DNA from: Gemmatimonadota bacterium | GTDB lineage: Bacteria; Gemmatimonadota; Gemmatimonadetes; Gemmatimonadales; GWC2-71-9 | DNA: 64,000 nt | NCBI GenBank assembly: GCA_016720805.1 | Contig: JADKJZ010000014.1 | Span: 193,772 to 257,771 of the forward strand | Direction: 5' to 3' | In this document: in pieces, positions 6,226 through 63,423 of the stretch | How positions within the stretch are numbered: the stretch's first letter is position 1 | Layout of the letters: each line of letters begins with the position of its first letter | Program-made: the position numbers and the translations under genes | Notes under the pieces: generated by a model | Databases searched by the model: none | The model's input: the letters and a program-made list of their open reading frames with translations, nothing else | What the model was told of the DNA's origin: nothing

Positions 6226-6657
6226 GTGGCACGCACCAGACGTCGCGGTGGCACCAACGTCGCACCACCGTCCGAAGCAGCGGTTCTCCCAGGTCCCGCC
6301 GGCACCACCGTTTCTCGCCCCGCTGGACGCACCTACGGCTCCCATCGTGAATGGCTCCTGGCCAGGCACGGGTCGGTGTGCGCGTACTGTGGCGCCAAGG
6401 TTCCACCCGAAACCATCACGCTCGACCACGTCCGGCCGCGTCGCGGCCAGTCGGCCTACGACCGGCCCGACAACCTGGTCCTCGCCTGCCGCCCCTGCAA
6501 CGCCGCCAAGGCCGACATGCCGCTGCTGGCGTTCCTGATGGCGCGCCGCGCGCGTGGTGTCTTCCTGCTGCACTACGGCGATCACCTCTCCGACCCGCTG
6601 AAGGAATTGGTGCGGAAGTCGAGTGAGCGGCCGTTGTTGCCGCCGGAGAGTCGTTAG
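6226..6657 (+). CDS. HNH endonuclease
   Basis: CAYCG ... TLDHVRPRRGQ ... NLVLACRPCNAAK (His-Me finger with Cys pairs). GTG 6226 is preceded by GGAAG. Lower-GC promoter-like DNA at 6150-6225. The stop TAG lies in the heptamer array. Confidence 0.75.
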   Translation: MARTRRRGGTNVAPPSEAAVLPGPAGTTVSRPAGRTYGSHREWLLARHGSVCAYCGAKVPPETITLDHVRPRRGQSAYDRPDNLVLACRPCNAAKADMPLLAFLMARRARGVFLLHYGDHLSDPLKELVRKSSERPLLPPESR

Positions 6658-6783
6658 TCGTTAGTCGTTAGTCGTTAGGACGTAATGGAAAGAGGGTCGC
6701 GCATCACGGCAAATTGCTCGTGACTCGCGACCCTCTCAGCCTTTCACCCTAACGACTAACGACTAACGACTAACGACTAACGA
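6651..6783. repeat. Composite palindromic element: 4x TCGTTAG, GC hairpin, 5x CTAACGA
   Basis: Left array 6651-6678. Inner 11-bp stem AGAGGGTCGCG/CGCGACCCTCT at 6691-6736. Right array 6749-6783. Lies between convergent HNH and kgd. Confidence 0.9.
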
Positions 6784-9700
6784 CTCCAGCACCCTTTCCC
6801 CCCAACGCCTCTCCCACAATCCGCGCCTGCTCCGCCTTGTGCGCCGAGAGATAGCCCTCGGCTGGCGAGGCGCGCTCGGGACGGCCGATGTAGCGCATCG
6901 TCACGCCGGCCGGGAGAATGGTGCGCATCCGCGGCTCGATGAACGACCAGGCGCCCATGTTGCGCGGCTCTTCCTGCACCCACGCCACGTCGGTCAGCGA
7001 CGGATAGCGCGACAGCAGTTCCTTCACCTCGCGCTCGGGGAAGGGATAGAGCTGCTCGATCCGGGCGATCGGCGGGCGATCATCGCCGAGCTTGGCCGCC
7101 TCTTCGACGAGGTCGTAGTAGACCTTGCCGGTGCAGAGCAGCAGCGTGCGCGCGGCGGCGCGGCGACCGTTGGTGGCCGGATCGTCGAGGACCGTCTCGA
7201 AGCGGCCCGAGGAGAGATCGGCCAGCGAGCAGCTTGCGGCCGTGGCGCGGAGCAACGACTTCGGCGTCATCACGACCAACGGCCGGCGGATCGCCCACTT
7301 CGCCTGACGGCGCAGGACGTGGAAGTACTGCCCCGAGGTGGAGCAGTTGACCACGCGGATGTTGCCCTCGGCGGCCGACTGCAGGAAGCGCTCGACGCGC
7401 CCGCTGGAATGCTCCGGCCCCTGGCCCTCATAGCCGTGCGGCAGCAGCAGCGTGAGCCGCGAGGTGACGCCCCACTTCGACAGACTCGACGCGAGGAACT
7501 GGTCGAGCATCACCTGCGCGCCGTTCACGAAGTCGCCGAACTGCGCCTCCCACACCACCAGCGCCTCGGGCGCCGCCGTGGCATAGCCGTACTCGAAACC
7601 GATCGTCGCCAGTTCGGAGAGCGGCGAGTTGTGCACCTCGAGCGGCGCCGAGGCGCCTGGCAGCGCCTGCACCGGCGCGAAGACGTCGCCATTCAGTGCG
7701 TCGTGCAGGACCAGGTGGCGATGGGAGAAGGTGCCGCGCCCCACGTCCTGGCCGGTGAGCCGGATCGGAGTCCCCTCGACCAGCAGCGAGGCAAACGCCA
7801 GCGCTTCGGCGTGTCCCCAGTCGATGCCATGCGGTTCGATCAGCGCGCTGCGACGCTTCTCGAGCTGCTTCACCAGCTTCGGGTGCACCGTGAAGCCGGC
7901 CGGCCACGAGAGGAGCTGCTCGTTGAGCGAGGCGATCATCTCCGCCGGCAACGCCGTCTCGAGTTCGCCGGCCACGCCCGCATCGCGCGCCGGCTCGACC
8001 ACGGCAGCCGGCCGCCCGATCGACGACTTGAAGGAGGTCTGGATCTCGACAAAGCGGTCGTACGTCTTGGTCACCAGCGCATCGGCATCTCCAGCCGAGA
8101 GCACGCCGGCGCTCGCCAACTGCTCGGCGTAGCGGGCGCGCACCGTCGGCATCTCCTTGATCCGCGCGTACATCACCGGCTGCGTGTAGCCCGGCTCGTC
8201 CGTCTCGTTGTGCCCGTGGCGGCGATACCCCACCAGATCGATGAGCACGTCGTCTTCGAACTTGACGCGGTACGCCATCGCCAGGCGGACGGCCGCGAGG
8301 CAGGCCTCCGGGTCGTCGGCGTTGACGTGGATGATCGGGATGTCGAAGCCCTTGGCGAGGTCCGACGCCCAGCGCGTCGAGCGGCCGTCGCGCGGGTCGG
8401 TGGTGAAGCCGACCTGATTGTTGGCAATCAGGTGGACCGAGCCGCCGGTGTGATAGCCCGCGAGGTCGCCGAGATTCAGCGTCTCGGCCACGACGCCCTG
8501 CCCCGGGAAGGCGGCGTCACCATGGATGATCACGGGCAGCGCGGCCGTCGTGTCGACCACGGCTTCGCGGCCGCGACGATTGGTCTGCGCCGCGCGCGCC
8601 CGGCCATCGACCACCGGCCCGATGAACTCGAGGTGACTCGGGTTCGGCAGCAGCGCGACCGTGATGGCCTTGCCACCCTGCGTGACGAACGCTCCCTCGG
8701 CGCCGTGATGGTACTTCACGTCGCCGGTGCCACCATCTGGGGTCATCCCGCCGGTCGGTTGCTTGGCGCCTTCGAATTCGGCAAAGAGTGCCTCGTACGG
8801 GCGGCCGACGGTGTGCACCAGCACGTTCAGGCGGCCGCGGTGCGCCATGCCGAGCACCACGTCGCGTGCGCCCGCGTCTGCGGCGAGCTCGATCGTGAGG
8901 TCGAGCATCGGGACCATGATGTCGAGCCCTTCGATCGAGAAGCGCTTGGCACCGAGATACGCCTTGCCGAGGAAACGTTCGAGCCCCTCGACCTGCGTGA
9001 GCCGCTCGAGCAGGGCATGCTGCGCCTCCGCCGTGATCGGCTGGCGATGGGCGCCCGATTCGATCTGCTGCCGCAGCCAGACGCGCTGCTCGTGCGAGGC
9101 GATGTGCTCGACTTCGTAGGCGATCGTACCGCAATAGGTGGCCTGCAGGTGGGGCAGCGCCTCGGCGAGCGTCTTCCCGGGGACGGCGATGCGCAGCACG
9201 TCGGTCGGGATGGTCGCCATCGTGGCCTCGTCGAGGCCGACCGTGGCCGGGACGAGCGCCGGATCGCCGACCGGCGGCGTCCCGAGCGGATCGAGCTGCG
9301 CGGCCAAGTGGCCGTGGGTCCGGAACGCCTTGATCAGCGCCATCCCGGCCGCCACGTGCTGCAGCTGGGCCGGCGACGTGGTCGTGGCGGCGCTCGCGAT
9401 CGGCATCATGCCGGTCCAGCCCGCGGAGGCCGGGGGCGCGGCGACGGAGGCCGTTCCGGGGGTGGCGGTGAGGGGCGACGGGGTCGCAAGGCCGAAGGCC
9501 GCGAAGATCCCCTCGTAGAAACCGTGCTCGCCCTGAAGGAACTGGTCCACCAGCTTGAGGAAGTTCCCCGACTCCGCGCCCTGGATCACGCGGTGATCAT
9601 ACGTCGAGGTGATCATCATCACCTTGGCGATGCCGAGCGTGGCGATCTGTTCCTTCGACATCCCGGTGAACTCGGGCGGATAGGCGATCGCCCCGGTGGC

Positions 9701-10408
9701 GAAGATCGTCCCCTGGCCGGGCATCAGGCGCGGCACCGACGCCACCGTCCCGATGCCGCCCGGATTGGTGAGCGTCATGGTGGCGCCAGCGAAGTCGTCG
9801 GGCATCAGCTTGTTGGTGCGCGCCTTCTCGACCAGCCCTTCGTAGGTCGCCAGGAACTCGGCGAAGCTCATCGTGTCGGCGCGCTTGAGCACCGGCACCA
9901 TCAGGCCGCGACTGCCGTCCTTCCGCTCCACGTCGACGGCGAGGCCGAGCTGGACGTGCTCCGGCACCAGCTTGTAGGCGTCGGCGCCGCTCTTGAGGAC
10001 GCCGGTCCCCATCACCGGGAACTGCTTGGCCCCCTGCACCAACGCCCAGGCGATCAGGTGGGTGAACGAGAGCTTCTCGCTGCGGCCGGCTGCCTTGAGC
10101 TGGCTGTTGAGCTCGGCACGGCGCGCCTCGAGCACCCGAACCGGCAGCTCGCGGAAAGTCGTCGCCGTCGGAATGGCGAGGGAGGCGTCCATGTTGCGGG
10201 CCAACGCCGCGGCCGGCCCCTTCAACTGGACGGCATGGGCGGGCACGGGGACGTCAGGGGCCGCCGCGGCAGCCGCGGTGGGGGCCGTCGCACTCGGGGC
10301 GGCCGCGGGCCGCTCGAACGGGACGGGGGTCTGTTCCTCGAGCAGGGCCTCGAAAATGGCCTCGGCCGGAAGGCCGACCTCGGGCTGCTCGGAATCGTTC
10401 GGATGCAC
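6770..10408 (-). CDS. kgd: Kgd/OdhA-type 2-oxoglutarate dehydrogenase: E2-like succinyltransferase domain fused to E1o
   Basis: 1212 aa. N-terminal SFTHLIAWALV ... STYDHRVIQGAESGNFL (acyltransferase catalytic domain), then a long E1o ThDP region colinear with mycobacterial Kgd. Confidence 0.9.
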   Translation of the reverse strand: MHPNDSEQPEVGLPAEAIFEALLEEQTPVPFERPAAAPSATAPTAAAAAAPDVPVPAHAVQLKGPAAALARNMDASLAIPTATTFRELPVRVLEARRAELNSQLKAAGRSEKLSFTHLIAWALVQGAKQFPVMGTGVLKSGADAYKLVPEHVQLGLAVDVERKDGSRGLMVPVLKRADTMSFAEFLATYEGLVEKARTNKLMPDDFAGATMTLTNPGGIGTVASVPRLMPGQGTIFATGAIAYPPEFTGMSKEQIATLGIAKVMMITSTYDHRVIQGAESGNFLKLVDQFLQGEHGFYEGIFAAFGLATPSPLTATPGTASVAAPPASAGWTGMMPIASAATTTSPAQLQHVAAGMALIKAFRTHGHLAAQLDPLGTPPVGDPALVPATVGLDEATMATIPTDVLRIAVPGKTLAEALPHLQATYCGTIAYEVEHIASHEQRVWLRQQIESGAHRQPITAEAQHALLERLTQVEGLERFLGKAYLGAKRFSIEGLDIMVPMLDLTIELAADAGARDVVLGMAHRGRLNVLVHTVGRPYEALFAEFEGAKQPTGGMTPDGGTGDVKYHHGAEGAFVTQGGKAITVALLPNPSHLEFIGPVVDGRARAAQTNRRGREAVVDTTAALPVIIHGDAAFPGQGVVAETLNLGDLAGYHTGGSVHLIANNQVGFTTDPRDGRSTRWASDLAKGFDIPIIHVNADDPEACLAAVRLAMAYRVKFEDDVLIDLVGYRRHGHNETDEPGYTQPVMYARIKEMPTVRARYAEQLASAGVLSAGDADALVTKTYDRFVEIQTSFKSSIGRPAAVVEPARDAGVAGELETALPAEMIASLNEQLLSWPAGFTVHPKLVKQLEKRRSALIEPHGIDWGHAEALAFASLLVEGTPIRLTGQDVGRGTFSHRHLVLHDALNGDVFAPVQALPGASAPLEVHNSPLSELATIGFEYGYATAAPEALVVWEAQFGDFVNGAQVMLDQFLASSLSKWGVTSRLTLLLPHGYEGQGPEHSSGRVERFLQSAAEGNIRVVNCSTSGQYFHVLRRQAKWAIRRPLVVMTPKSLLRATAASCSLADLSSGRFETVLDDPATNGRRAAARTLLLCTGKVYYDLVEEAAKLGDDRPPIARIEQLYPFPEREVKELLSRYPSLTDVAWVQEEPRNMGAWSFIEPRMRTILPAGVTMRYIGRPERASPAEGYLSAHKAEQARIVGEALGGKGAGVVSR

Positions 10409-10495
10409 GGCATCTCCGGCTTGGAGTCAACCTGACAAGATAATCGAGGAATCCCGGCCAGCGACCTCGCAGACACGACCCGTGACCTGTAACCC

Positions 10496-10564
10496 GGGTC
10501 GCGGGTCACGGGTCACTGGTCACGGCTCCTGGTCAGCGTTCACCCCTCACCCCTCACCCCTCAC
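10496..10564. repeat. Direct period-7 array: GGGTCGC, 2x GGGTCAC, TGGTCAC, GGCTCC, TGGTCAG, CGTTCAC, 3x CCCTCAC
   Basis: Read directly. One 6-nt unit, otherwise a single register. Lies in the divergent kgd/fadI gap and ends 15 nt before ATG 10580. Confidence 0.9.
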
Positions 10565-10579
10565 AACTAGATTTGCTGC

Positions 10580-18869: not shown

Positions 18870-18901
18870 TCGCCGTTCGCTTCTCGCTTCTCGAGTCTCG
18901 C
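18860..18901. repeat. Period-7 tract: GGTTCGC TGATCGC CGTTCGC TTCTCGC TTCTCGA GTCTCGC
   Basis: Six units of the form NNN-TCGC. Spans the yfcC stop (18867-18869) and ends 3 nt before the Rieske ATG 18905. Confidence 0.85.
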
Positions 18902-18904
18902 CGT

Positions 18905-25510: not shown

Positions 25511-25686
25511 GGTGGTGGGGGGCTCCCGGCGCGCGGGTCAGGGTGAGGAGTGGGGGGTGGCGCGGAGCAAGTCCGGAGGATGGCGCAGTGGGGCCCCCGG
25601 CACAAGGCGACCCCCCTGCGGCTACTTTTCCGCCGCTCGCGGTCGCTACCGACCCCCCTGTTCCCGATTCGAGGCACGCCCCTGCG

Positions 25687-29168: not shown

Positions 29169-29169
29169 G

Positions 29170-45192: not shown

Positions 45193-45220
45193 GAGGGGAC
45201 TCGGAGAAGAGGTGGGCGGA

Positions 45221-48374: not shown

Positions 48375-48465
48375 AGTGAACGGTCAACGGTGAACGGTGA
48401 ACGGGCCTCCGAGCCGCAGCGCCGCAACCGATGGCATCGATCACCGTTCACCGTTCACCGTTCAC
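48375..48465. repeat. Inverted period-7 arrays: AGTGAAC GGTCAAC 2x GGTGAAC / CGATCAC 3x CGTTCAC
   Basis: Left array 48375-48402, 35-nt centre, right array 48438-48465 ending 18 nt before ATG 48484. Confidence 0.9.
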
Positions 48466-48483
48466 TTCCTGCTGGAGGCTCTC

Positions 48484-52686: not shown

Positions 52687-53591
52687 GCCTCGGCGTCATC
52701 CTGGCGCTGGTGATGGTGCAGGTGCTCTTCGCGTCGCTCGCCATCACCGGCAAATTCGTGCTGCCGTTCGTTCCCGCGTTTGCGTTGGTCGCCTTCCGGC
52801 TCGCCGGTGGTGCCATCGTCTTCGATCTGGTGCGGCGTCGCCAGGCGGTGGTGGTCATCCCGCGCGGCGATCGCTGGCGGCTCATCGGGCTCGGGCTGCT
52901 CGGCCTCGCGATCAACCAGACCCTCTTCCTCTTCGGCCTGCGCCACAGCACCGCGATCAACGCGACGATTCTCGTCGCCACCATTCCGGTCCTCACGGCC
53001 ATCATCGGCGTCGTCACCGGCCGCGAACGTCCCGCGCCCCTCAAGCTCGCCGGAATGGCGATCGCGATCGTGGGCACCGTCTGGCTGATCGGGCCCGATC
53101 GCATCGCCTTCGATCATGACACCGCGCTCGGCAACCTGTCGATCGAAGTCGGCATGGTGGCCTACGCGCTGTATCTGGTCTACTCACGAGCGCTGGTGCG
53201 TCGCCACGGCTCCATTCCCTCGGTCGCACTGATCTTCACTTCCGCCGCGATCGGCTACTTCCCGATCGGCGCGTGGGCGCTCTGGCATCTGGATTGGACC
53301 ACGGTGCCACTGTCGGCGTGGTGGTGGACGCTCTGGATCGTGTTGGGGCCGACGGTGGGGACCTACTTTCTCAATCTCTGGGCGCTCAAGCGCACCTCGT
53401 CGAACGTCGTGGCCGGCTTTGTCTACCTGCAACCGATGTTGACCGCGGTGGTCGCGCCGCTGGTGCTCGCGGGCGAGCAGTTGACGCCGCGAGCGATCGG
53501 CGCCGGGCTCGCGATCTTTGTGGGGTTGGGGTGCATCCTCCGCGCCGAGCAGATGGCGCTCGAGGCCTCGGCGGCGGGCGCGGAGAGCTAG
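52683..53591 (+). CDS. EamA/DMT family transporter
   Basis: Ten hydrophobic segments forming two EamA-like halves. GTGA overlap with the helicase stop. Confidence 0.8.
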   Translation: MSLGVILALVMVQVLFASLAITGKFVLPFVPAFALVAFRLAGGAIVFDLVRRRQAVVVIPRGDRWRLIGLGLLGLAINQTLFLFGLRHSTAINATILVATIPVLTAIIGVVTGRERPAPLKLAGMAIAIVGTVWLIGPDRIAFDHDTALGNLSIEVGMVAYALYLVYSRALVRRHGSIPSVALIFTSAAIGYFPIGAWALWHLDWTTVPLSAWWWTLWIVLGPTVGTYFLNLWALKRTSSNVVAGFVYLQPMLTAVVAPLVLAGEQLTPRAIGAGLAIFVGLGCILRAEQMALEASAAGAES

Positions 53592-55634
53592 CGGGCCGCG
53601 GGTCGGGCCCGGCCACGTCCCGCACGCACCAACCGCTCGAGCCGCTCGCCGAGGCGGTCCACGGCATCGCGGTGGGCCGCGAGCGCCGTGGCCAACTGCG
53701 CGCGTTCGGCCATGAACGATTCCAGCACGGCGGTCAGGTGTTCATCACGCGCGCTGCGTCGCGCCGCCACCATGTTCGCTTCCTCGATCGCGGGCCAGAG
53801 CGCCCGGGCCGAACTCTCGAGGCCGCCCGCGAGTTCCGTGATTCGGCGCGCGGTCACTTCGCTCGCCTCGGCCTCCCGAATCGCTTCGGTCAACGCGTGG
53901 CGGAGCGTCTCCAGTTCCGATTGCAGTGCGGTGCCGTCGCTGGCGAGGGCCGCCGTCTGCGCGGCAATCGCGCTCGACGCATCGGTGGTGGCATCGGCGA
54001 GGCGCCGGATCTCCTCGGCGAGGACCGTGAAGGTCCGCCCTGCCGCGCCGGCGCGGCTTGCCTCGAGCGCCGCCGTGTTGGCCAGCAAGTTGGTGCGGAA
54101 CGCGACCCCGCTCACGGTGTCGTTGCTCGCCGCGATGGCCTCACTGTGTCGGTCGATCGCGGACAAGTCCACGCGCAGTGCCGCCAGGCCGTCGACGGCG
54201 CGCGCGATGGCGTCGGTGGCCGCGCGGGTGTGCGCGCGCGCTTCCGCGACCGCGGTCTCGAGCCCGTCACTCCGCGCGCCGATGGCCTTGCTGCCGTCAC
54301 TCAACTGGGTGAGCACCTCGCTGGCGTCGACGGGCAACGGCAGCCCGCGGCCGTCGTCGGTCACCAACTCCGGCAACAACCCGGTGGCGTGCGCCAACCC
54401 GCGACTCACTTCGCCGGCATCGTGCGCAAAGCCGCCGAGTTGCATCTCCCGCTCGGCTTCCCGTCGCCGCACTCGAATCGTCGAGGAAATCGGCCCGAGA
54501 AAGGCGAGCAGCCACTCCCGCTCGCGGCGGCCAAAGGCTCCCCGGAAAGCGCCCTTCGAGATACACCTCGCCGAGCGGATCGCCGCTCCGGCCGATCGGC
54601 GCCACGACCGAACGCCGCTCGTCGAAGGTCTCGGCGTCCGGCACGAACGCCCCCTCGGGCCGCGCGCGCCGTGGGGTCCCGACCGTGACTTCCAGATCTG
54701 GCGTCCCGATCCGGATCACCACGGCCTCCGCCTCGAAGATCGTCCGCAACTGTTCGGCGCTCTCGCGAATGCCGGCTTGCAGGTCGGCGTCGTCCAGCAG
54801 ACGCTGGGCGAGCCGATAGGCCGCCAGGTCCCGCTTCCGTGGATTGACCATCGGCAGGGCAAGGATCCCCCCCAAGCCGAAGATGGCCAACAGCGGAAGG
54901 GTCGTGAAGACCGGGAGAATGGGGAGCCCAATCGACCCCAGCAGCTCGGGCACCAGCGAACTCACCACCGCCGGGACCAGGCCGAAGAGGACCGCCGCCA
55001 GCGTCCAGCTCACGGCCTGGCGCTGGGAGGCCCGGCGATTGGACGAGGCCAGCGAGAGCAGGAGCGCGCCGACGGCCAGGGTGGCCCCGACCGGTTCAAA
55101 GGTCTGCCGCAGGAAGAAGCCGTCGACCACCCGGAGGAGCGGCGCCTCGCCAAAGGCGATCCCCCCGGCGGTGGCCACAAAGAGGGCGCCGTGGAGGGCA
55201 TACCAGCCGGTCACGATCCCGAACCAGAAGCGCTGCTGGTGGTTCCAGGCGACCGCGAGTGCGAAGTGGACGACGACGGGCGTCAACAGGTAACGCCACG
55301 GGCCGACGATCAGAAACAGCCCGAGCGGGGTGGACTTGCTGACTGGCGCGTCAAGGGACAGGAGCGCAGTCAGGACGGCCGCGGCCGAGACGAGCCCGAG
55401 GAATGGGGCGGTCGGTGGGGCCTCCGGCGTCTGGATGAGCGCCAGGACACCCAGTCCGAGCAGGAGCAGGGCCACCAGCCCGGAGACGGCGACCACGGTC
55501 GAGTCCGGTGCCGGCGAAATGAGGAGGGGGCCGACGACCAGCCCCGCACTGATACAGGCGACCGCCGCAATGAGCGGCCAGCTCCCGAGCGGGCGGCGGA
55601 GTGACACGGAGGCGGTCGTTTGGGCATCAGTCAT
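53588..55634 (-). pseudogene. Polytopic membrane sensor - GAF-like - MCP signalling domain protein, frameshifted near 54540 (or sequence error)
   Basis: 5' ORF 54297-55634 (MTDAQ ..., about 8 TM, ... GEVYLEGRFPG). It continues in another frame as AFGRREREWLLAFLGPISSTIR ... into ORF 53588-54472, which carries NLLANTAALEASRAGAAGRTFTVLAEEIRRLAD. Confidence 0.6.
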
Positions 55635-55712
55635 GGATGAGGGAAGAATATGGCCCGTCGGAGCGGGGAGAGGAAACCGCCCCACGTCACCAACTGAAAC
55701 CAAGAGGCCCCC

Positions 55713-56192
55713 TTGGGCGTATCACCTGACATGACCCAGCCGATGATGACCCCGACCCTTCCGTCGGTCTTCTCGCCGCTCGCGAAGGCGCTCCTCGATT
55801 CATTCAACGAGGGCGTCATCGTGTTCGACAAGGACGGGCGGATTCTCTACCTCAACGCCTCCGGGCGTGATTCCCTCGCCGAGGCTGGACTGGATCCCGC
55901 CGGTGAGAAGGACGACCTCCTCCCTGAGCTCGCCGGGATGGGTGGTCGGCTCGCCCCGATCCGGGTTGGTTCGTTGGAACTCGGTGAGGCGATCTTCCTC
56001 CCCCGCCGGGAGGGTCCGACCACCCTCGCGGAGCGAGAAAAGGACGCGATTGTCCGCTCGCTCGAGGCGCACAATTGGCGCCTCGCGGAAACGGCAAAGA
56101 CCCTCGGCATCTCGCGCACCACGCTGTGGCGTCGCCTCCGTGCCTATGGCCTCCACCGTGACGGGCGCACCAAGTGGGATCAGGCGTCGTAG
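55713..56192 (+). CDS. PAS-like plus Fis-type HTH DNA-binding protein
   Basis: C-terminal EREKDAIVRSLEAHNWRLAETAKTLGISRTTLWRRLRAYG. Alternative start ATG 55731. Confidence 0.7.
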   Translation: MGVSPDMTQPMMTPTLPSVFSPLAKALLDSFNEGVIVFDKDGRILYLNASGRDSLAEAGLDPAGEKDDLLPELAGMGGRLAPIRVGSLELGEAIFLPRREGPTTLAEREKDAIVRSLEAHNWRLAETAKTLGISRTTLWRRLRAYGLHRDGRTKWDQAS

Positions 56193-58355
56193 CGCTGTTG
56201 GCCTTCGCCCTGATCGGGCAACAGGCCGCCGACACCACCACGTACGCCGACCGAGCCACCAGAGACCTGGTGGCTCGTGCGGTTGCGCGTCACGCCTCCG
56301 CCGATACCACCGTCCGCGACTATCAGGCCCACCTCCGCTATCGCGTCTCGTTCGGGATTGGCCAACGGCGCTGGGCGGATGTGCCGACCGCCGCCGTCGA
56401 AGAACAGGACGGCACGGTCCACTGGTCGCTGCCCAACGATCTTCGCGTCGATATTCTCGGCCGTCGCGAGGCATCACGCCTCGATGGCGTGAACCTGATG
56501 TCGTCGTTCAGTCGGCCCTGGTTCGTGCCGCGCACGCTGGGCGACTCGATCCGCGTGCTCGGTGGCGACGCCTCGTCGCGCGCCGCGCCGCATCCGCTCT
56601 CGAAGGGTGGCGAGGCGATCTACCGCTACGCCGCCGGCGACTCGCTGGTGATCGGCATGCAGGGCCGCCGCTTCACCATCCGCTCGATCACGATCATGCC
56701 GCGCGAGAATGCGGCGGTCGCGGTGGCCGGCCGACTCTGGGTCGACACCGAGAGCGGCGATGTGGTGCGATTCACCTTCCGCTTTGTCGGACGGGAACTC
56801 TGGACCGATCTCGACGACGAGATGTCGGGCGATTCGGTCGGTGCCCGGCGTGCCGGTCGCATCGTGCAGCAGCTCGTCCAGCTCGATGCCGACCTCGAGT
56901 ACTCGCTGCAGGAGAACAAGTACTGGTTGCCGGCACGCCAAGTCCTCTCGGGCCGTGTGACGGTGCCGCTCGGCGGCGGCCTGACCGTGCCCTTCGAGGC
57001 GACGACCACCTTCGATGATTACGACGTCAACACCGGCAAGGGCGTCGTCTTCACGGCGGCGTTCCGGGATTCGACGTCGCGGCCCACCCGGGAAGAGCGC
57101 GTCGCGGCGCGCGATTCGCTCCGTGCGGCCCGGCGTGACAACGTCATTCCCGATTCCCTGCGTGCCCGCGACAACACCGGCTACCTCGCGCGGGGCGGCC
57201 GGTATCAGGTGCATCGGCCGCCCGTCGACTCGCTGCGGCAGTACGCCGCCTGGAGCGATTCGCTCGTGCTCGAACAGGATCCGGTCGAGCGGGCACGGCT
57301 GCGCGAGGCGTTGGCCGACGTGGCCGGCATCGTCGAGGACTTGCCGCCGGGGTTGAGCGGCAAACCGGGATTCGGCTTCGCGTGGGAGAAGCTTCCGGAC
57401 ATGATTCGCTTCAACCGGGTGCAGGGGACGACTTTCTCGTATGGCCAGCGATTCGGGACGCCGTGGGGATTCACGACCGCGTTTGCCACGGCGCGCTATG
57501 GCCTTGCCGACCATCGGGTGATGGCGACGGGCATGATCGTGCGTGACGCGCCGAGTGGGCGCTTCACGATCAGCGGTGGGCGCGATCTGGCCGACATCGA
57601 TCCCTGGGCGCGCGGGCTGAGCTTCGGCAATTCACTGCGTGGCATGCTGGTCGGGCGCGACGAAGGAGCCTATCTCCTCGCGCAGGGCGTGCGGCTCCAG
57701 CTCGAGCGGAGCGCAGGGTTGGGTCGGGAGCTGCTCCTCGCCGGCTATATCGCCGACCAGCAGAGCGTGGCGACCGAGTCGAACGGCGGCCTGCCGCACA
57801 CCTTCGACAAGTCGTGGTCCTTCCCCGGCAATCCCACGGTCCGCGAGGGTCTCGCGACCGGCGGGCAGCTCCGCTATACCGCGCAGCAGTATGGGCGGGC
57901 GTTCGGTCTGTCCGGTGGAAGGTGTCGCGGTGGATGGCGAGGTCGCGGGTCGACTGACCGCCGATTGGCGGCAGACGTGGTGGCGCGGCGCGGTGACGTT
58001 GCGGCTGAAGGGCGGCCTCGCAGAAGGCAGCGACCTGGTGCCGCAGATGGCGCTGCGGGCCGGCGGCCTCAACACGGTGCGCGGCTACGACTTCGGTGTG
58101 GCGAGCGGTGATGCCCTCTGGTCGGCGCAGCTCGACGTGATGCGCGCCGGTCGCGGCGCCGTGAAGACGGTGCTCTTCGCCGATGCCGGACAGGCGGGTC
58201 GACGGGACGCCTTCGGCGACGCTCCGTTCCTCTCCGGGGCCGGCGTCGGTGTCACGGTGCTTGGCGGGATCATCCGCGCCGAACTGAGCCATCCACTCAC
58301 CGAGCGTGCCGGCCGCGGTCTCCGCTTCGACCTGATCTTTGGCGGGGCTCGGTGA
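56174..58355 (+). pseudogene. Outer-membrane Omp85/ShlB-like protein, frameshifted near 57900-57920 (or sequence error)
   Basis: ORF 56174-58111 has a signal peptide. After ...YGRAFGLS the plausible sequence continues in the frame of ORF 57639-58355 (EGVAVDGEVAGRL ... LNTVRGYDF ... LFADAGQ ... FDLIFGG). Confidence 0.55.
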
Positions 58356-58894
58356 CCCGAGGCCGGCTGATCGTCGTCGTGGCGCTGCTCCTGGCTGCCG
58401 CCGGGGCAGGGCTCTGGTGGTGGCGCGGGCGTGACGGCGCCCTGCCGCTGGGCGGCGTGCCGGCGGACGCCATCGCCCTCAGTTGGAAGGGGAAGTTCAA
58501 GGGGAGCGCCACGCTCCCGGCGACGGTGAACTGGTGCCCGGGGAGTCGCGTCGCCATCGTCGAGGGACTCTCCAACGACACCGGCTTCGTGATGGTCGTC
58601 CATGCGGCCGACACGCTCGCGAAGGGGACGATGTCGGTGCTGCCGGCCGAGTTCATCGCGGCGGCTGGCGGCCCGCGCCCCGCGGCGTCCAGTGCCCTGC
58701 GCTGGCCAGCCGATACCGCGATCCTCGCGGGGTATCGCGGTCAGAATGGGCTGGTCGAGTTGGTGCCCCAGGGCGGGCGTCTTTCCGCCACCTTCACGAT
58801 CCGGATGCAACCGCCGATGTCCTCGGACACGATCAGCGTCACCGGGGCGTTCCGGAACCTGAAGGTGGAGTCGCGGGCGGTGGGCTGCCCCTGA
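58352..58894 (+). CDS. Membrane-anchored hypothetical protein
   Basis: GTGA overlap. N-terminal TM helix LIVVVALLLAAAGAGLWWW. GC3-rich codons. Confidence 0.55.
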   Translation: MTRGRLIVVVALLLAAAGAGLWWWRGRDGALPLGGVPADAIALSWKGKFKGSATLPATVNWCPGSRVAIVEGLSNDTGFVMVVHAADTLAKGTMSVLPAEFIAAAGGPRPAASSALRWPADTAILAGYRGQNGLVELVPQGGRLSATFTIRMQPPMSSDTISVTGAFRNLKVESRAVGCP

Positions 58895-58896
58895 CG

Positions 58897-58931
58897 GACG
58901 ATGATCGATGATCGATCATCGATGATCGATC
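58897..58931. repeat. Period-7 array: GACGATG ATCGATG ATCGATC ATCGATG ATCGATC
   Basis: Read directly. Self-complementary ATCGAT core. Lies 2 nt after the stop at 58894. Confidence 0.9.
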
Positions 58932-58953
58932 ACCCAGCTCTCGAATCCCCGCC

Positions 58954-60168
58954 TTGTCGAGTATCTTCCCCCTCATGGAATCCACCTACTTCCGCCGCGG
59001 TTTCGGCCTCAAGGGCGAGATCGAGGCGCAGCGCTCGGCGGACTATGCCAGCGGGATCGTCGAGACCGTCCGGGCCAACGGGAACCGGCTGCAGGTCGGT
59101 CCGCTGACCTTCCGGCTCGCCAAGGAATTCGGCTTCTGTTACGGCGTCGATCGCGCCGTCGACTATGCCTACGAGACTCGTCGCAAGTTCCCCGATCGTC
59201 GGTTGCTGTTGGTGGGCGAGATCATTCACAATCCGCACGTGAATGAGAAGCTCGCGGCGATGGGGATCATCTTCCTCGAGCACAACCCCGGCGCGGACTT
59301 CGATTTCACCGACATCACGCCCGAAGACGTCGTCATCATCCCCGCCTTCGGCGTGACGATGAAGGACTTCCAGCGGCTGCGCGCCATTGGCTGTGTGCTG
59401 GTGGACACCACCTGCGGGTCGGTCCTCAACGTCTGGAAGCGGGTCGACAGTTATGCCCGTGATGGCTACACCGCGGTCATCCACGGCAAGCACTACCACG
59501 AGGAGACGCAGGCCACGGCGTCGCAAGCGACCAAGCACGATGGCGGGAAGTACCTGGTCGTCTTCGACATGGCCGAGGCGCGTATGGTCTGCGATGTGAT
59601 CGAGGGGAAGGGCGACGCGTCTGCGCTGGCGGAGCGGTTCGCGAAGGCCTGTTCGCCCGGCTTTGATTTTACGGCTGATCTGCGGCGAATCGGGGTCGCC
59701 AACCAGACCACGATGCTCTCCGGGGAATCGCTGGCCATCGCGGCCGAGCTCCGGAAGTCGCTGATCGTGGCCTATGGCGAGGCCGCCGTGGACGATCATT
59801 TTCGCTCCTTCGACACCATCTGTTCCGCCACGCAGGAGCGTCAGGATGCCGTGGTCGAGCTGCTCCAGGAGCCGCTCGACCTGATGCTGGTGGTGGGAGG
59901 CTACAACTCCTCCAACACTTGCGCCCTGGCCGCCCTGGCCCAGAGCAAGGGCGTCCGGACCTACCACCTCGAGGATGCGGAGGGGGTGGACCCGGAGGCC
60001 GGTACCCTTCGGCACCAGCCGGTCCGCACCAAGCGGGAAGAGGTCCTGGCCGATTGGCTGGGTGACGCGAAGATCATCGGCATCACCGCCGGCGCCTCGA
60101 CCCCCAACAACAAGATCGGCGAGACGATCGCTCGGGTGGGGGCGATGATCGGCGTGGAAGTGAGGTAG
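58954..60168 (+). CDS. ispH: 4-hydroxy-3-methylbut-2-enyl diphosphate reductase, long (cyanobacterial/plant-like) form
   Basis: FGFCYGVDRAV, HNPHVN, and the Cys and His motifs of LytB. Has an N-terminal extension. Start is TTG 58954 or ATG 58975. Confidence 0.9.
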   Translation: MSSIFPLMESTYFRRGFGLKGEIEAQRSADYASGIVETVRANGNRLQVGPLTFRLAKEFGFCYGVDRAVDYAYETRRKFPDRRLLLVGEIIHNPHVNEKLAAMGIIFLEHNPGADFDFTDITPEDVVIIPAFGVTMKDFQRLRAIGCVLVDTTCGSVLNVWKRVDSYARDGYTAVIHGKHYHEETQATASQATKHDGGKYLVVFDMAEARMVCDVIEGKGDASALAERFAKACSPGFDFTADLRRIGVANQTTMLSGESLAIAAELRKSLIVAYGEAAVDDHFRSFDTICSATQERQDAVVELLQEPLDLMLVVGGYNSSNTCALAALAQSKGVRTYHLEDAEGVDPEAGTLRHQPVRTKREEVLADWLGDAKIIGITAGASTPNNKIGETIARVGAMIGVEVR

Positions 60169-60290
60169 GGAACGGCGAACGGCGAACGGCGAACGGGACG
60201 AAGGGTGAAACGTGAGACGTGAAACGGGAGCCAACGAGCGGCCCACGTTTCACGTTTAACCTTTCACCATCTCCGTACCCGTTTGCCGTC
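60167..60290. repeat. Period-7 arrays. Left: 3x GGCGAAC + GTGAAAC/GTGAGAC block. Right: GTTTCAC-type block + degenerate GTTTGCC
   Basis: Left tract 60167-60229, centre GCCAACGAGCGGC, right tract 60244-60290. Starts at the ispH stop codon. Confidence 0.85.
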
Positions 60291-60324
60291 TTGACAATAA
60301 ACCAGTCATACGACTGCTTTATGT

Positions 60325-60975
60325 ATGCCAAAGTCGCCAGTAACGGCCGCCATCCACGACCCGATCTCCGCCATTCTGGGGACTCGAGGCAAGGTCGCGG
60401 TGATGCGAGTGCTCGCTTCGGCCGCAAACCCGCTCCAGCAAAGGGAAGTGGCTCGGCGGACCGGAATGGCCCTCCGGACCGTGGAGCTGGCGCTCGACGA
60501 CCTGCTCGCCTCCGGCATCGTCGAACGACTGGCCGGGGGACGCGAGCGGCTCGTGCAGGTACGCTCCTCTCATCGCCTCACCCCCTCGATCCTCGCCGTC
60601 CTCCGCGCCGGCGCCGACCACTGGCCGGCCCTCCGCTCCGAACTGCGAGCTGCCGCAACCACCCCGCACGACCCCGCCCTCCTCTCGGTCGCCGTCGTCG
60701 GACGGGTCGCCACCCGCACGGAGAGAATCGGCGATCCCCTCGACCTGCTCCTGCTCGCTGCCGACGGCCCCACCGCAGCCCGATGGGTCGCACGCTTCGC
60801 CTCCCTGGCTGACACCGTGGCCACCCGATTCGGTGTGACGCTGCGCCCGATCGGCTACGGGTTGAATGCCGCTCGAGAAATGTGGGCAGTGCGTACATCT
60901 GCTGCTGAGCAGACCGTCCGCGAGGCTGAGCGGGTTCACGGGGCAGAGCTCCTGGTGCTGCTCAGCGGCGGCTAA
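60325..60975 (+). CDS. Winged-helix protein with degenerate nucleotidyltransferase-like C-terminal domain
   Basis: wHTH QQREVARRTGMALRTVELALDDLLASGIVE. Then VVGRVATRTERIGDPLDLLLL resembles the minimal NTase G-x ... D-x-D segment but is not canonical. Confidence 0.55.
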   Translation: MPKSPVTAAIHDPISAILGTRGKVAVMRVLASAANPLQQREVARRTGMALRTVELALDDLLASGIVERLAGGRERLVQVRSSHRLTPSILAVLRAGADHWPALRSELRAAATTPHDPALLSVAVVGRVATRTERIGDPLDLLLLAADGPTAARWVARFASLADTVATRFGVTLRPIGYGLNAAREMWAVRTSAAEQTVREAERVHGAELLVLLSGG

Positions 60976-61097
60976 TGGTCGATACTCGCCGGGCCGAACA
61001 GCGAGTCCGTGACTTCACAGCCAAGGACCGTTCGGCAGACCGCGCTTCTGCTCACGCTGCGTCTCTGCGCGATAGAGAGCGCTACCGAAAATCTTGA

Positions 61098-61148
61098 GCA
61101 AATGTACGCAATGCACACATTTGCGATTCCAAGGCCAAAGTGTACATT
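61098..61148. promoter_or_regulatory. Candidate TetR operator palindromes
   Basis: GCAAATGT-N11-ACATTTGC (61098-61124). AATGTAC (61101-61107) is matched by GTACATT (61142-61148), which ends 8 nt before the TetR ATG 61157. Confidence 0.5.
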
Positions 61149-61156
61149 GATCACAT

Positions 61157-61768
61157 ATGCCTAACCCGTTGCACGACAACGCCAAGCCGAAGTCGGGCTA
61201 TCATCACGGCGATCTCCGCGCCGAGTTGATTCGCGAGGGAATCCGTCAGCTGGAGCGGGGTGGTGTCGCCGAACTCTCGTTGCGGCAACTGGCTAAAAGC
61301 GTCGGCGTGACGGGGTCAGCCCCGTACCGGCATTTCCCGGATCGGTCGGCGTTGCTGGAGGCGATCGCCGCCGAAGGGTACCGGCGGGTGGCGGCCACGC
61401 TGGCGCCGAGTGGGGTCAGGGTCGCCGAGGGGGCGCGGCGGGTGGTCCACTTCGCCGCGGAGCACCCGGCGTGGTGGGAGTTGATGGCGGGGGGCGGTGG
61501 GGCGATCGGGCCCGATCTCGAGGAGGCGCGGGGGTCCTTTCTCGCGGAACTTGTCGGGGTGGTCGAGCGATCAATCGGTGGTGAGTCAGCCGAGGAGGCG
61601 ATCCGCTTGGCTGTGGCGGTCTGGGCCGCGCTCCTCGGTCTGGTACGGCTCCGTGCCAGCGGTGGGGTGGCCGTGCTCGACGAGGCCATGGTGCCCGAAC
61701 CGGCCGCGTTGGCCGAATCGATCGTTACTGGCCGGCCGATGCCACCAGCTGGCGCGCGACCGCGGTGA
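61157..61768 (+). CDS. TetR/AcrR family transcriptional regulator
   Basis: HTH LSLRQLAKSVGVTGSAPYRHFPDRSALL. Confidence 0.85.
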   Translation: MPNPLHDNAKPKSGYHHGDLRAELIREGIRQLERGGVAELSLRQLAKSVGVTGSAPYRHFPDRSALLEAIAAEGYRRVAATLAPSGVRVAEGARRVVHFAAEHPAWWELMAGGGGAIGPDLEEARGSFLAELVGVVERSIGGESAEEAIRLAVAVWAALLGLVRLRASGGVAVLDEAMVPEPAALAESIVTGRPMPPAGARPR

Positions 61769-62603
61769 TCGTGAGCGGGGCACACCCTTCGGCGCGGTTG
61801 TTGACGATCAGGTAGGCGGGGACGCGGAGTTCGAGGGCTGCCTTGGCGAGTGCCGCGAGGTCGCCGCGGAGCTCAGGGTTCTCGTCCTGCACATGGTCAT
61901 ACGGCGCGAACGCATCGACCGCTGTCGAGTAGCTCCGACCCGGGCGGAGAAGGGCCCGCGCCACCAGGAAGTCGGCCGTGATGGCATCGTGCAGCTGGAA
62001 CTGCTCGCCGATCGACGGCATCCGAGTCCAGCTGTTGAAGAGATGCGCGACGCCGTGGGTCCGCAGCACCGCAAAGTACTCCGGGCCCAGGTACTCCTGG
62101 TTGCGGAGCTCGACGGCGTAGGGGACCCCTCGAGGGAGCTGCCCGAAGAAGGCATCGAGTCGCATCGCGAAGTCGGCGGCACCGAGCTTGGCGGTTCGCG
62201 CAATCGTCTGGAATTCGAAGACGAACGGACCAATGTGCTCGGCAAAATGCGCCTGCATCGGCCCCAGCACTTCGTTGGTGAACAGGTCGGCGTTGAGCCA
62301 GTCCGGGTTGAGCTGGCCGAAGTGGGCTCGTTCCTTCGGATTCGCGAAGGTGTGGGCGGTGATCCGATCCCAGACCTTGCTGACACAGCGGAAGTCGGCG
62401 GGGAGCGCCGCGGCATAGCTCGCCAGCGTCCGCTCGGAGGGCGGCGTGTAGAAGAAGGAGTCGATCCCCACCGTCCGGAAGAGCGGCCAGCGCGCATACT
62501 CCGCCAGCATCTTCGCGCCAGCCCCGGTCGCCGGATACGGCTTCTCGTAGATCAGCCCCGTCCACCCCGGATACGTCCAGGAGGAACAGCCAAAGCGGAT
62601 CAG
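61725..62603 (-). CDS. DUF72 family protein, probable CTG start
   Basis: Track ORF 61725-62510 starts at an internal ATG. The same frame is open upstream and encodes IRFGCSSWTYPGWTGLIY, the usual DUF72 N-terminus. The only start-like codon there is CTG 62603. Confidence 0.65.
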   Translation of the reverse strand: MIRFGCSSWTYPGWTGLIYEKPYPATGAGAKMLAEYARWPLFRTVGIDSFFYTPPSERTLASYAAALPADFRCVSKVWDRITAHTFANPKERAHFGQLNPDWLNADLFTNEVLGPMQAHFAEHIGPFVFEFQTIARTAKLGAADFAMRLDAFFGQLPRGVPYAVELRNQEYLGPEYFAVLRTHGVAHLFNSWTRMPSIGEQFQLHDAITADFLVARALLRPGRSYSTAVDAFAPYDHVQDENPELRGDLAALAKAALELRVPAYLIVNNRAEGCAPLTITAVARQLVASAGQ

Positions 62604-62681
62604 CGGGGAGAGCTGATCCGCGAGGGCGGCGACTTCGGCGGGGAGGGGCCAGGAGGGTGCACCCCGAAACTATACTACCAA

Positions 62682-62710
62682 ATCGATGATCGATGATCGA
62701 TCATCGATTA
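62682..62710. repeat. Period-7 array: 2x ATCGATG, ATCGATC, ATCGATT
   Basis: Read directly. The yceI stop TAA (complement of 62708-62710) lies in the last unit. Confidence 0.85.
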
Positions 62711-63310
62711 CTTCCCGTCCTTCACGAAGTTGAAATCCAGCTCCAGCTGAATCGGATCATCCACGCGCGCCACCACCGGCACGCGAGGCACCGCAATGCC
62801 GAAATCGGAGAAGACGAACTTCGTCTTGGCCGTCCCGGTCAGCCCGGTCGGGCTCGCGGTGGCGGTGACGGTCCAGGTGGTTGGCTTGGTGACCCCCTTG
62901 AGGGTCAGGTCGCCCACCAACGTGAAGTTCAGCGCACCGCTGGTTGGCATCTTCGCCGGGAGGCCAGTGATCTCCTTGACGACGAGGACGGCGTTCGGGT
63001 AGGTCGCCGTCTCGAGGGTGTTGCGCTGCACGTACCCGTCGCGGCGATCGCGGTCGGTCTTCAGCAGGGTGAGGTCGATCGTGATCTTGGAGCCGGAGGA
63101 GACCACCTTGCCCGCCTTGTCGAGCGCGATCCCCCCGGTCACGCCGGCCGTCTTGCCGACGACGTCATTTTCGATGGTGTTGGCGGCGAGCAGCTCCCGG
63201 ACCTGATAGCGCGCCTCGGTGCCGGTGGGGTTCAGCGTGTAGTGGCTCTGGGCGGCCAACGGGGTGGCAGTCAGGCTCAGGAGGGCAAGGGTCGTGGCAA
63301 GGCGGGTCAT
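62708..63310 (-). CDS. YceI-family periplasmic (polyisoprenoid-binding-like) protein
   Basis: Signal peptide plus the YceI pattern (GVTGGI ... KTDRDRRD ... LTLKGVTKP). Confidence 0.8.
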   Translation of the reverse strand: MTRLATTLALLSLTATPLAAQSHYTLNPTGTEARYQVRELLAANTIENDVVGKTAGVTGGIALDKAGKVVSSGSKITIDLTLLKTDRDRRDGYVQRNTLETATYPNAVLVVKEITGLPAKMPTSGALNFTLVGDLTLKGVTKPTTWTVTATASPTGLTGTAKTKFVFSDFGIAVPRVPVVARVDDPIQLELDFNFVKDGK

Positions 63311-63388
63311 CGGGTCCGGGACTCCAGATTGGGGTGCATCGCAGGTGACGAATCAATACGGGGCGAGGGCACGGGGGGTTGCACCGCC

Positions 63389-63423
63389 ATCGATGATCGA
63401 TCATCGATGATCGATCATCGATG
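63389..63423. repeat. Period-7 array: ATCGATG ATCGATC ATCGATG ATCGATC ATCGATG
   Basis: Read directly. It encodes the last residues (SSMIDHR) and the TGA stop of the polymerase gene. Confidence 0.9.

Follow-up and report, generated by a model that had tools for sequence, protein, structure and literature searches.

Heptanucleotide arrays in a Gemmatimonadales housekeeping region

We analyzed a 64-kb stretch of contig JADKJZ010000014.1 (assembly GCA_016720805.1; hereafter the window, positions 1-64000), which derives from an uncultured soil or sludge bacterium of the Gemmatimonadales and carries short tandem arrays of 7-nt units between its genes. The Lon protein encoded at 34576-37080 shares 81-96% identity with proteins from metagenome-assembled genomes (MAGs) of uncultured Gemmatimonadota/Gemmatimonadales. 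Genes were mapped by codon bias and checked with Pfam on about 58 open reading frames (ORFs), start-codon calls being approximate. The gene content proved to be housekeeping only, including an OdhA-like 2-oxoglutarate dehydrogenase, thiolase, Lon, PFK, LytB, Rho and DnaE, and the Pfam scans revealed no transposase, integrase, reverse transcriptase or cas gene among these ORFs, in agreement with an earlier reading of the letters alone (the sequence-only reading), which had seen no transposase near the arrays. A scan against Rfam at gathering thresholds and a tRNA scan, both of the whole window, were empty; the search of Rfam for the repeat units, which that reading had proposed, thus gave no match.

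Tandem Repeats Finder and an independent scan for matches at lag 7 delineated 27 array blocks in 15 spacers, amounting to 1018 nt. All 15 loci previously listed as strict period-7 tandem arrays were recovered by these two methods, and no additional array was detected anywhere in the window. Exact runs with at least 14 matches at lag 7 occurred 15 times, compared to none in 100 first-order Markov simulations of the window, bearing out the enrichment over controls, while exact runs at other periods were absent (periods 8-12) or near expectation (1-3 runs for periods 4-6). Independent assemblies (JGI, ENA, NCBI, Logan) carry the arrays at the same positions, indicating that they are not assembly artifacts. 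Chance, misassembly or a degenerate CRISPR locus, to which the repetitive appearance alone and the frequent breaks of public contigs inside arrays might point, has negligible probability on these data; CRISPR, dismissed already from the letters, is contradicted by directly adjacent, spacer-less 7-nt units and the lack of cas genes in the window. Genes for tRNAs or other noncoding RNAs were rejected in view of the empty scans.

As a separate observation, several retrieved contigs (L004, L087, L102, L125, L159, L168) and many public short-read contigs end inside heptamer arrays (L-numbers denote retrieved comparison loci or contigs, L089-L168 being metagenome matches to (GTCGTTA)3). The dispersed arrays appear to fragment the assemblies of these organisms, which makes the breakage of short-read assemblies a practical consequence.

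With about 91.5% of the window coding and 8.5% noncoding, 920 of the 1018 array bases (about 90%) are noncoding, corresponding to 17% of all noncoding bases. The remaining 98 nt are confined to the last few codons of genes. The sequence-only reading was right to call the arrays extragenic. About half of the spacers of at least 60 nt carry arrays (4/5 convergent, 3/8 divergent and, given the approximate start-codon calls, about 5-8/17 co-directional), which is less than the 'most intergenic spacers' of the sequence-only reading. The window carries 0.42 array blocks per kb, close relatives 0.37 and more distant relatives 0.07.

The units fall into at least nine families, namely GTCGTTA, GGGGTGA, GTGACCN, ACGGCGA/ACAGCGA, GTGAACG, GCGAGAA, GGATGAT, ATCGATG and GTGAAAC, with 2.9-8.9 copies per array. 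Only GGGGTGA contains G-runs. Units recur across the window, GTCGTTA at three loci and TCACCCC, GGTCACN, ACGGCGA and ATCGATG at three to four loci each, and they likewise recur across loci in the same-species contig L214.

Mirrored pairs, central hairpins and constant polarity

Most array loci are mirrored pairs in which a G-rich array is followed by a hairpin and then by the reverse-complement, C-rich array. The sequence-only reading had described this mirroring and the long stems that could result, and both were confirmed: the inverted arms form predicted stems of 25-70 bp, with RNA minimum free energy z-scores of -6 to -15 on both strands across eight paired loci. Two elements of the anatomy had been overlooked, a constant polarity of the pairs and a GC-rich hairpin at the center of elements between convergent genes.

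This central hairpin is present in three out of four convergent-gene elements (6646, 32154, 37070). The first begins with a left arm (GTCGTTA)x4.3 at 6646-6680, which holds the TAG stop codon (6655-6657) of an HNH gene, continues with the hairpin AGAGGGTCGCG...CGCGACCCTCT at 6691-6736 and ends with a reverse-complement right arm (CTAACGA)x5.3 at 6747-6787, which overlaps the minus-strand OdhA-like gene at 6770-6787 and encodes its last five codons (6773-6787) and stop. In the E1/kinase spacer, the left arm (GTCGTTA)x4.1 (32154-32188) begins 2 nt past the stop codon of the E1 dehydrogenase gene, the hairpin AGAGGCCGGCC...GGCCGGCCTCT (32198-32233) is common to the orthologous spacers of relatives, and the right arm (CTAACGA)x8.4 (32244-32297) extends into the stop of a minus-strand Ser/Thr kinase gene. 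The third element, downstream of Lon, combines a left arm (TTAGTCG)x4.6 (37070-37108) in phase with the TAG that ends Lon (37078-37080), the hairpin AAAGGCCGGTCTCC...GGAGGCCGGCCTTT (37120-37153) and a right arm (CTAACGC)x3.9 (37154-37192), an arm-specific variant with one T/C mismatch per unit relative to the left arm. Just two hairpins of the window are of the GGCCGGY type. The fourth element (44284-44418) occupies the entire PFK/glyoxalase spacer and exemplifies compound arrays nested in mirrored order, namely (ACGGCGA)x5.9, (GGGGTGA)-like units, a loop, (TCACCCC)x3.4 and (GTTCGCT)x4; here, the inner heptamer arms themselves make the hairpin. An exact-protein look-up of the glyoxalase gave no record. 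The fifth convergent spacer (3760-3827) lacks arrays and has just a simple GC-rich hairpin (GCGCGGGTGCGGCC-AGA-GGCCGCACCCGCGC), offering a natural 'empty' comparison site.

Pairs are also found in other gene arrangements. (GGATGAT)x4.6 ... (ATCCATC)x4.6 (40721-40832) and the nested pair (GGTGAAC)2 (GTGACCN)4 ... (GGTCACA)x8.9 GTTCACC (45220-45420; unequal arm copy number) each lie between two minus-strand genes, while (GTGAACG)x4.1 ... (TCACCGT)x3.6 (48376-48467) lies in a divergent spacer. Another divergent spacer holds a left compound arm of GGGGTGA units followed by (ACGGCGA)x3.6 (29509-29554), 3 nt from the MazG start, and a right compound arm of (CYGGTCA)x5 followed by (CCCCTCA)x4.7 in a single register (29605-29672), the outer part of which pairs with 29509-29524. 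Three arrays combine closely related units: the self-complementary (CGATGAT/CGATCAT)x4.6 at 58896-58932, whose unit contains the palindrome ATCGAT and which begins 3 nt past a stop codon and leaves 22 nt to the start of LytB; the self-complementary (ATCGATG/ATCGATC) array at the YceI stop (62680-62710); and an alternating ATCGATG/ATCGATC array of period 14 (63388-63424), which overlaps the 3' end of a dnaE-like ORF.

Further arrays stand without a clear partner. These comprise (TCGCTTC)x3.6 (18877-18900) in the 35-nt spacer of the DcuC and Rieske oxygenase genes, (TCTCGCT)x2.9 (29143-29174) directly 3' of the stop of a minus-strand MazG-like gene, and (GAACGGC)x3.9 (60167-60198), which begins at the LytB stop and has a degenerate partner at about 60279-60290. 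The compound array (CGGGTCA/CTGGTCA)n then (TCACCCC)x3.6 (10493-10568) is weakly structured and ends 15 nt before the thiolase start in a divergent spacer. The degenerate tract suspected at 25535-25562, in a divergent spacer, does contain a GGGGTGA-like stretch; it falls below the array detection thresholds.

Both arms belong to the same family in about 11 of 13 pairs. Across 38 inverted pairs from the window and its relatives, the 5' arm was G-rich in 35 cases and C-rich in two, with one tie, and the exact-pair order GTCGTTA...TAACGAC was encountered seven times in metagenome contigs and the reverse order never, indicating that the G-rich strand runs 5' to 3' away from the nearest ORF. The arrays begin at or within stop codons, as had been noticed before. 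The Lon TAG and the TGA or TAA codons of relatives are in phase with the first unit, and array sequence supplies the final codons of the HNH and OdhA-like genes.

Relatives keep the architecture and replace the units

For comparison, 80 syntenic loci were retrieved from Gemmatimonadales MAGs. The E1/kinase and Lon/GGDEF convergent spacers, compared in 4-7 genomes, retain the same architecture in every close relative, and a GGCCGGC-type central hairpin is kept in most of them, while the arm unit changes from genome to genome: GTCGTTA in the window, GTCCTGA in L001 and L088, GTCGTGA and GCGAGAA in L002, GCGATGG in L003, GATGMTC in L010 and GCGAACR in L005. The two spacers, 5 kb apart, tend to share one unit per genome, indicating homogenization between loci. 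Seeing this rapid turnover required the comparison with relatives, and it was thus invisible to the sequence-only reading.

In about 25 of 45 Gemmatimonadales genomes, the region 3' of Lon follows the order stop codon, G-rich 7- or 8-nt array, hairpin and C-rich array, with lineage-specific units (CAGCGGGG, GCGGGTAA, GCGGTGA, GTGAGAG, GTGAACG). In several genomes this hairpin is followed by a T-tract, resembling a canonical intrinsic terminator; runs of T4-T6 after the equivalent hairpin are present in L015, L018, L024, L026, L030 and L045. In L019, L029, L031 and L036 the stem is a direct continuation of the arrays. The 8-nt arrays were confirmed by Tandem Repeats Finder, indicating that the period is not fixed at 7. 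Mirrored 8-nt units (CAGCGGGG, GCGGGTAA, GGCGGTAC) occur in sister Gemmatimonadales (L014 3240-3444; L050 1-175, 3866-3906, 6190-6291 and 8583-8735; L018 4682-4829; L030 18398-18545), some genomes of which also have 7-nt arrays.

Central hairpins were also compared for signs of concerted evolution. Among close relatives, those of the E1 and Lon spacers are slightly closer between orthologues (identity 0.72-0.83) than between paralogues (0.69-0.72). Hairpins kept while arms change would point to in-place remodeling rather than whole-element insertion. L003 differs from the close genomes in that its paralogous hairpins are more alike than the orthologous ones, the sequences compared being only 35 nt long.

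Two possible generalizations were dropped. A shared TCRY/RYGA core is found in 11 out of 11 window units and fails as a general rule because relatives use GTCCTGA, ACCGAGT, AGCTCCC and 8-mers without it. Similarly, the GTCGTTA unit is not diagnostic of the clade, since (GTCGTTA)3 was found in metagenome contigs of 34-71% GC (L089-L168); the low-GC matches are mostly single arrays without an exact-match inverted partner. GTCGTTA arrays occur in many unrelated organisms.

Turnover between strains and copying between loci

Window positions 52731-64000 align with a 472-kb contig of GCA_016709975.1 at 96.8% identity over 11.3 kb, placing both in the same species. The fraction of aligned columns that differ was 0.21 for arrays, against 0.07 for the remaining intergenic DNA and 0.026 for coding sequence, so that arrays show about eight times the per-base divergence of genes. 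The yceI gene shows 0/603 differences, while the adjoining (ATCGATG)n array (62680-62710) is replaced by a GTGAGAC/GTGAAAG hairpin with ATCGAT remnants; one strain has an extra unit at this site and another the different hairpin module. The module replacement in L209 is a chimera that retains ATCGAT remnants. One GTGAAAC unit is converted to GCGAGAAG in the comparison with GCA_016709975.1. A further strain, L213, carries one additional unit.

At the dnaE-like gene, the flanks of the array differ in GCA_016709975.1. Extra GGTCACN/GGTTACA units distinguish window 63388-63440 from L214 9850-9905 and change the last codons. In the PFK spacer, genomes whose PFK proteins are identical and whose synonymous divergence is 6% keep the outer arms (5.9 units in the window, 4.5 in L085) and have swapped the inner module. 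The arrays are thus the fastest-evolving DNA of the region, changing by unit gain and loss, single-unit conversion and whole-module replacement. Judged from the predicted reading frames, they remodel the C-termini of essential proteins (dnaE-like, OdhA-like), an effect of practical relevance, and they would make excellent variable-number tandem repeat (VNTR) markers for typing Gemmatimonadales strains in soil and activated sludge.

A dispersed palindromic module, GTGAAAC GTGAGAC GTGAAAC, loop, GTTTCAC GTTTAAC CTTTCAC, lies at window 60205-60264 and has copies at non-orthologous loci in the same species. Modules of the type GTGAAAC GTGAGAN GTGAAAC, loop, GTTTCAC... occupy at least four non-orthologous loci and include the inner module swapped into the PFK spacer; related copies are found at L214 1020, L214 1705 and the L085 PFK spacer. 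The window copy at 60205 and one at L214 4650, a different locus, read GTGAAAC GTGAGAC GTGAAAC GGGAGCCARCGAG... with the same loop, which argues for copying between loci.

Such behavior is also expected of non-autonomous mobile elements, and we considered whether the arrays are built from heptamer-armed elements of the miniature inverted-repeat transposable element (MITE) or REPIN type (REPINs being inverted doublets of repetitive extragenic palindromes, REPs), moved by a REP-associated tyrosine transposase (RAYT), an IS200-like enzyme or another enzyme encoded elsewhere. A palindromic module of about 58 nt at non-orthologous loci, once with the same loop, modules present or replaced between strains amid otherwise identical flanks, and genome-specific unit families dispersed over many extragenic sites as REPIN-like inverted doublets all speak for it. 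However, there is no transposase in the 64 kb, target-site duplications and conserved termini are lacking, loops differ among most copies while arms are conserved, and copy number varies in 7-nt steps. The somewhat greater similarity of orthologous hairpins despite changing arms, and the chimeric junctions in L209, do not fit insertion of whole elements either. Overall, we regard mobile elements as an unlikely explanation.

Relation to known repeat classes

In the survey of Mrazek et al. 2007 (as summarized in PMC4679880 and PMC4692102), heptanucleotides were the commonest class of long simple sequence repeats (SSRs) in Burkholderia, Actinobacteria and Xanthomonas, and polymerase slippage was proposed as the source of long SSRs of 5-11 nt (Mrazek, Guo & Shah 2007, per the same summaries). 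The window arrays resemble these repeats in the dominance of heptanucleotides, the mostly intergenic location and, as summarized (PMC4679880, PMC4692102), the occurrence in large, high-GC genomes of non-pathogens; unlike them, they show mirrored architecture, polarity and family turnover, none of which appears in the summaries of that survey, which was done without Gemmatimonadota. Our arrays share the features of dispersed heptanucleotide SSRs, that is, an excess of head-to-tail 7-nt units, noncoding bias, units recurring at multiple loci, an orientation rule and strain variation.

The closest described counterpart are the Xanthomonas GGGAATC arrays, which form 70-75 inverted pairs per genome, overlap stop codons, vary in length between strains (Rehm et al. 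2015, PMC4692102) and serve as VNTR markers. These and the Nostoc GGGGA(C/T)T repeats (PMC4692102) are, as in the window, dispersed 7-nt tandem units with a strong noncoding bias and convergent inverted pairs forming stem-loops; they lie 0-50 bp from ORFs, overlap stop codons, have the G-rich strand as the coding strand after stops and the noncoding strand before starts, vary in length between close relatives while keeping position and single or paired type, and show no link to mobile elements or particular gene classes. Together with the SSR survey (as summarized), this contradicts the impression that such arrays were unknown in GC-rich non-cyanobacteria, and Rehm et al. 2015 (PMC4692102) covers much, albeit not all, of the supposed novelty. 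In contrast to the Gemmatimonadales, with at least nine families, Xanthomonas and Nostoc genomes have essentially one unit, and density is about 0.4 blocks per kb here versus roughly 170 per 5-Mb genome there. Replacement of the unit family at orthologous sites, nested compound arrays, 8-nt sister units and the different phylum set our arrays further apart.

The Xanthomonas and Nostoc units are capable of forming a G-quadruplex (G4) and have been proposed to act as G4 regulatory repeats. The GGGGTGA family (29509, 44330, 25535) and the relatives' 8-nt CAGCGGGG family offer at least four G-runs, and the polarity rule is the same as for the G4 repeats. Since GTCGTTA, ACGGCGA, GTGAACG, GGATGAT, ATCGATG, GTGAAAC and GGTCACA contain no GGG runs, a stable G4 is not possible for these families, and the preference for exactly four units that marks the subtype of Rehm et al. 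2015 is absent, with copy numbers spreading over the range given above. A repeat type defined by G4 formation was rejected on these grounds, and a G4 role of the arrays is very improbable.

The short tandemly repeated repetitive (STRR) sequences are known from heterocystous cyanobacteria of low to moderate GC, with the units CCCCA[A/G]T, TT[G/T]GTCA and CAACAGT for STRR1-3. They were a fair analogue to propose; yet the units of the window differ from STRR1-3, the nearest, CTGGTCA, being one base from TTGGTCA of STRR2, and the host belongs to the Gemmatimonadales. Both STRRs and the TAACTGA repeats described in Beggiatoaceae, cyanobacteria and Bacteroidetes (MacGregor 2015, PMC4679880) are likewise dispersed intergenic heptamers near ORF ends with several families per genome, and a post-transcriptional role has been proposed for them (MacGregor 2015, PMC4679880). 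TAACTGA repeats are almost all direct (1 inverted in 170) and lie just upstream of start codons (PMC4679880), whereas the Gemmatimonadales arrays are mostly inverted pairs, most consistently at convergent gene ends.

S1, Csp and CsrA have been proposed as binders of TAACTGA repeats (PMC4679880), and the arrays could in principle be periodic platforms for a protein that binds single-stranded nucleic acid, each domain covering about 7-8 nt (OB-fold: S1, cold-shock or Rho N-terminal domain). Such binding might affect translation initiation, translational coupling or Rho loading, each of which we consider improbable. A platform would be consistent with units confined to 7-8 nt (some genomes having both lengths), sense-strand pyrimidine-rich units 3-45 nt upstream of starts, purine-rich units after stops, arrays within very short operon spacers without an obvious Shine-Dalgarno (SD) sequence (18870-18904) and a Rho gene in the window. 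The many unrelated units and their fast turnover at one locus, however, are hard to square with sequence-specific recognition, and arms that pair would be double-stranded and so out of reach for these proteins; a protein platform is an improbable account of the arrays as a whole.

REPs are single imperfect palindromes of 20-40 bp that carry a GTAG or CGTC tag and are associated with RAYT transposases (PMC3733652). Our arrays share with REPs, bacterial interspersed mosaic elements (BIMEs) and REPINs the extragenic location, often at 3' ends and in convergent gaps, inverted doublets as long hairpins, species specificity, copies that differ between strains and proposed roles in termination and mRNA 3'-end protection. 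They differ in that the arms are variable-length 7-nt tandem arrays with no tag, so the view that these are not classical single-palindrome REPs was upheld; no tagged palindrome consensus was found among the window arrays, and Pfam detected no RAYT (Y1/HUH) transposase gene in the 64 kb. In the same line, MITE-like recurrence of modules at non-orthologous loci and their replacement between strains come without target-site duplications, with mostly different loops and with chimeric junctions. The GC-rich hairpins central in convergent spacers are reminiscent of intrinsic terminators, with no U-tract in the window copies by consensus scan.

In the literature on heptamer repeats in Gemmatimonadetes/Gemmatimonadota and on STRRs, we found no report linking such repeats to the phylum, which Huang & Mrazek 2014 do not mention. 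The class is therefore already known, and the arrays are a dense, multi-family form of dispersed heptanucleotide repeats rather than something unprecedented. They stand out by the phylum, the density, the many, mostly non-G4 families, the nested mirrors around terminator-like hairpins, the rapid replacement of units at orthologous sites and the 8-nt variants.

Origin, maintenance and possible effect

We favor, with a probability of roughly 55%, the reading that these are dispersed 7-nt tandem repeat families in the class of long SSRs, STRRs and Xanthomonas GGGAATC, which arise by slippage and copying and extend terminator hairpins. Within it, the identity and evolutionary dynamics of the arrays are well supported. 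Replication slippage would change copy number, while template switching or gene conversion between arrays, possibly nucleated by the shared 7-nt register and short cores (GTGA/TCAC), would copy units between arms and between loci. Selection on coding sequence and translation signals would confine arrays to spacers and fix their orientation, purine-rich, often stop-containing units being tolerated after ORFs and pyrimidine-rich units without start codons or SD-like sequences before them. In read-through RNA, the distal arm could pair with the proximal arm in any register and convert a modest GC hairpin into a very long stem, a putative bidirectional terminator or insulator that might block or mark read-through and protect 3' ends in both directions, like REP/BIME. 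That the arms extend the gene-end hairpin to limit read-through and protect 3' ends is our best guess as to their effect, with about one chance in three.

Several observations weigh against this reading. The unpaired arrays (10537, 18877, 29143, 60167) are unstructured by fold prediction, and arm copy numbers are often unequal, for example four versus eight to nine units. In the Lon spacer, each arm is homogenized for its own variant, with the one T/C mismatch per unit described above, indicating that slippage within arms outpaces correction between them; unequal and mismatched arms fit weak or no selection for perfect pairing. In a consensus promoter and terminator scan covering 28.6-48.6 kb, the central hairpins went uncalled because they lack the U-tract, and the scan returned fewer terminator-like sites than shuffled sequence did. 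The convergent spacer with a plain hairpin only (3760-3827) shows that arrays are not required at a gene end. Sense and antisense fold energies, compared in three co-directional cases with confident gene calls, revealed no sense-strand G.U advantage or trend. Slippage alone leaves a period of 7-8 rather than 5, 6 or 10 unexplained, and gene conversion between loci is something we infer from shared modules.

A neutral or selfish origin, in which slippage-prone arrays of 7-8 nt are spread by recombination wherever selection allows and have no function, is possible, if doubtful. It becomes a serious rival by virtue of the plain-hairpin spacer, the mismatched and unequal arms, the unpaired arrays, the missing U-tract and the lack of a sense-strand folding advantage. 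Mirror arrangement and polarity would then result from filters only, with stop-rich purine units after genes and start- and SD-poor pyrimidine units before them, a proposition we hold to be equally tentative. The arrays fill the space between stop codon and hairpin exactly and overwrite the last codons, the unit gives stops in three frames (GTCGTTA supplies TAG), strains are hypervariable, and arrays are missing from one convergent spacer and from many relatives. Moreover, the same ORF-relative orientation rule governs the mostly unpaired arrays of Xanthomonas and Nostoc. On the other side, both arms nearly always share a family despite the number of families available, which the orientation filter alone does not predict, the array-hairpin-array architecture persists over an order-level clade while units change, and stop-free families (ACGGCGA, GCGAGAA, GCGATGG) follow the same polarity.

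The opposite extreme would be an actively maintained, orientation-coded system rather than passive microsatellites, with a lineage-specific, trans-acting writer or homogenizer of 7-8-nt units; we consider it distinctly unlikely. Candidate writers would be a nuclease or recombinase acting at hairpin-stalled forks or a templated repeat-adding enzyme, and register-tolerant stems or OB-fold-bound arms (7-8-nt footprint) would serve across the genome as terminators, insulators or a device for translational coupling. If true, this would explain the unit length of 7-8 nt.

These arrays are of value as a tractable system for comparing why and how heptamer arrays build up in bacterial genomes. Why bacteria favor 7-nt tandem repeats and what STRR-like arrays do are questions that go back to 1990 and 2007. 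With many coexisting families, fixed architecture and polarity, 8-nt sisters and within-species turnover, the clade is an informative natural experiment, which allows slippage to be told apart from templated copying and RNA-level from DNA-level roles. Extrapolating from 0.4 blocks per kb, a genome would contain hundreds to perhaps thousands of arrays.

Other features of the window

The minus-strand gene at 6770-10408 encodes a 2-oxoglutarate dehydrogenase E1 with an N-terminal 2-oxoacid acyltransferase (E2-like) domain, that is, the fused OdhA/Kgd arrangement. The best-known examples of this fusion come from Corynebacteria and Mycobacteria. A stretch of 15 consecutive C at 2217-2231, within ORF 2192-2983 and upstream of a phytoene/squalene synthase domain, would encode a proline run; a frameshift, phase variation or a hotspot of sequencing errors are possible explanations.

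Two in-frame coding repeats were also identified: a 24-nt period repeated 2.5 times at 48846-48905 within ORF 48484-48993, and a GGY-rich (glycine-codon) repeat at 52598-52661, at the C-terminal end of a 903-aa helicase-like protein. Finally, a 26-nt inverted repeat (60878-60903 and 61097-61122; 88% complementary, arms 193 nt apart) runs from the end of a 216-aa ORF to the region upstream of a TetR-family gene and may be an operator or regulatory region; the gap between its arms is a hotspot of divergence from GCA_016709975.1, with 20 differences per 100 nt.

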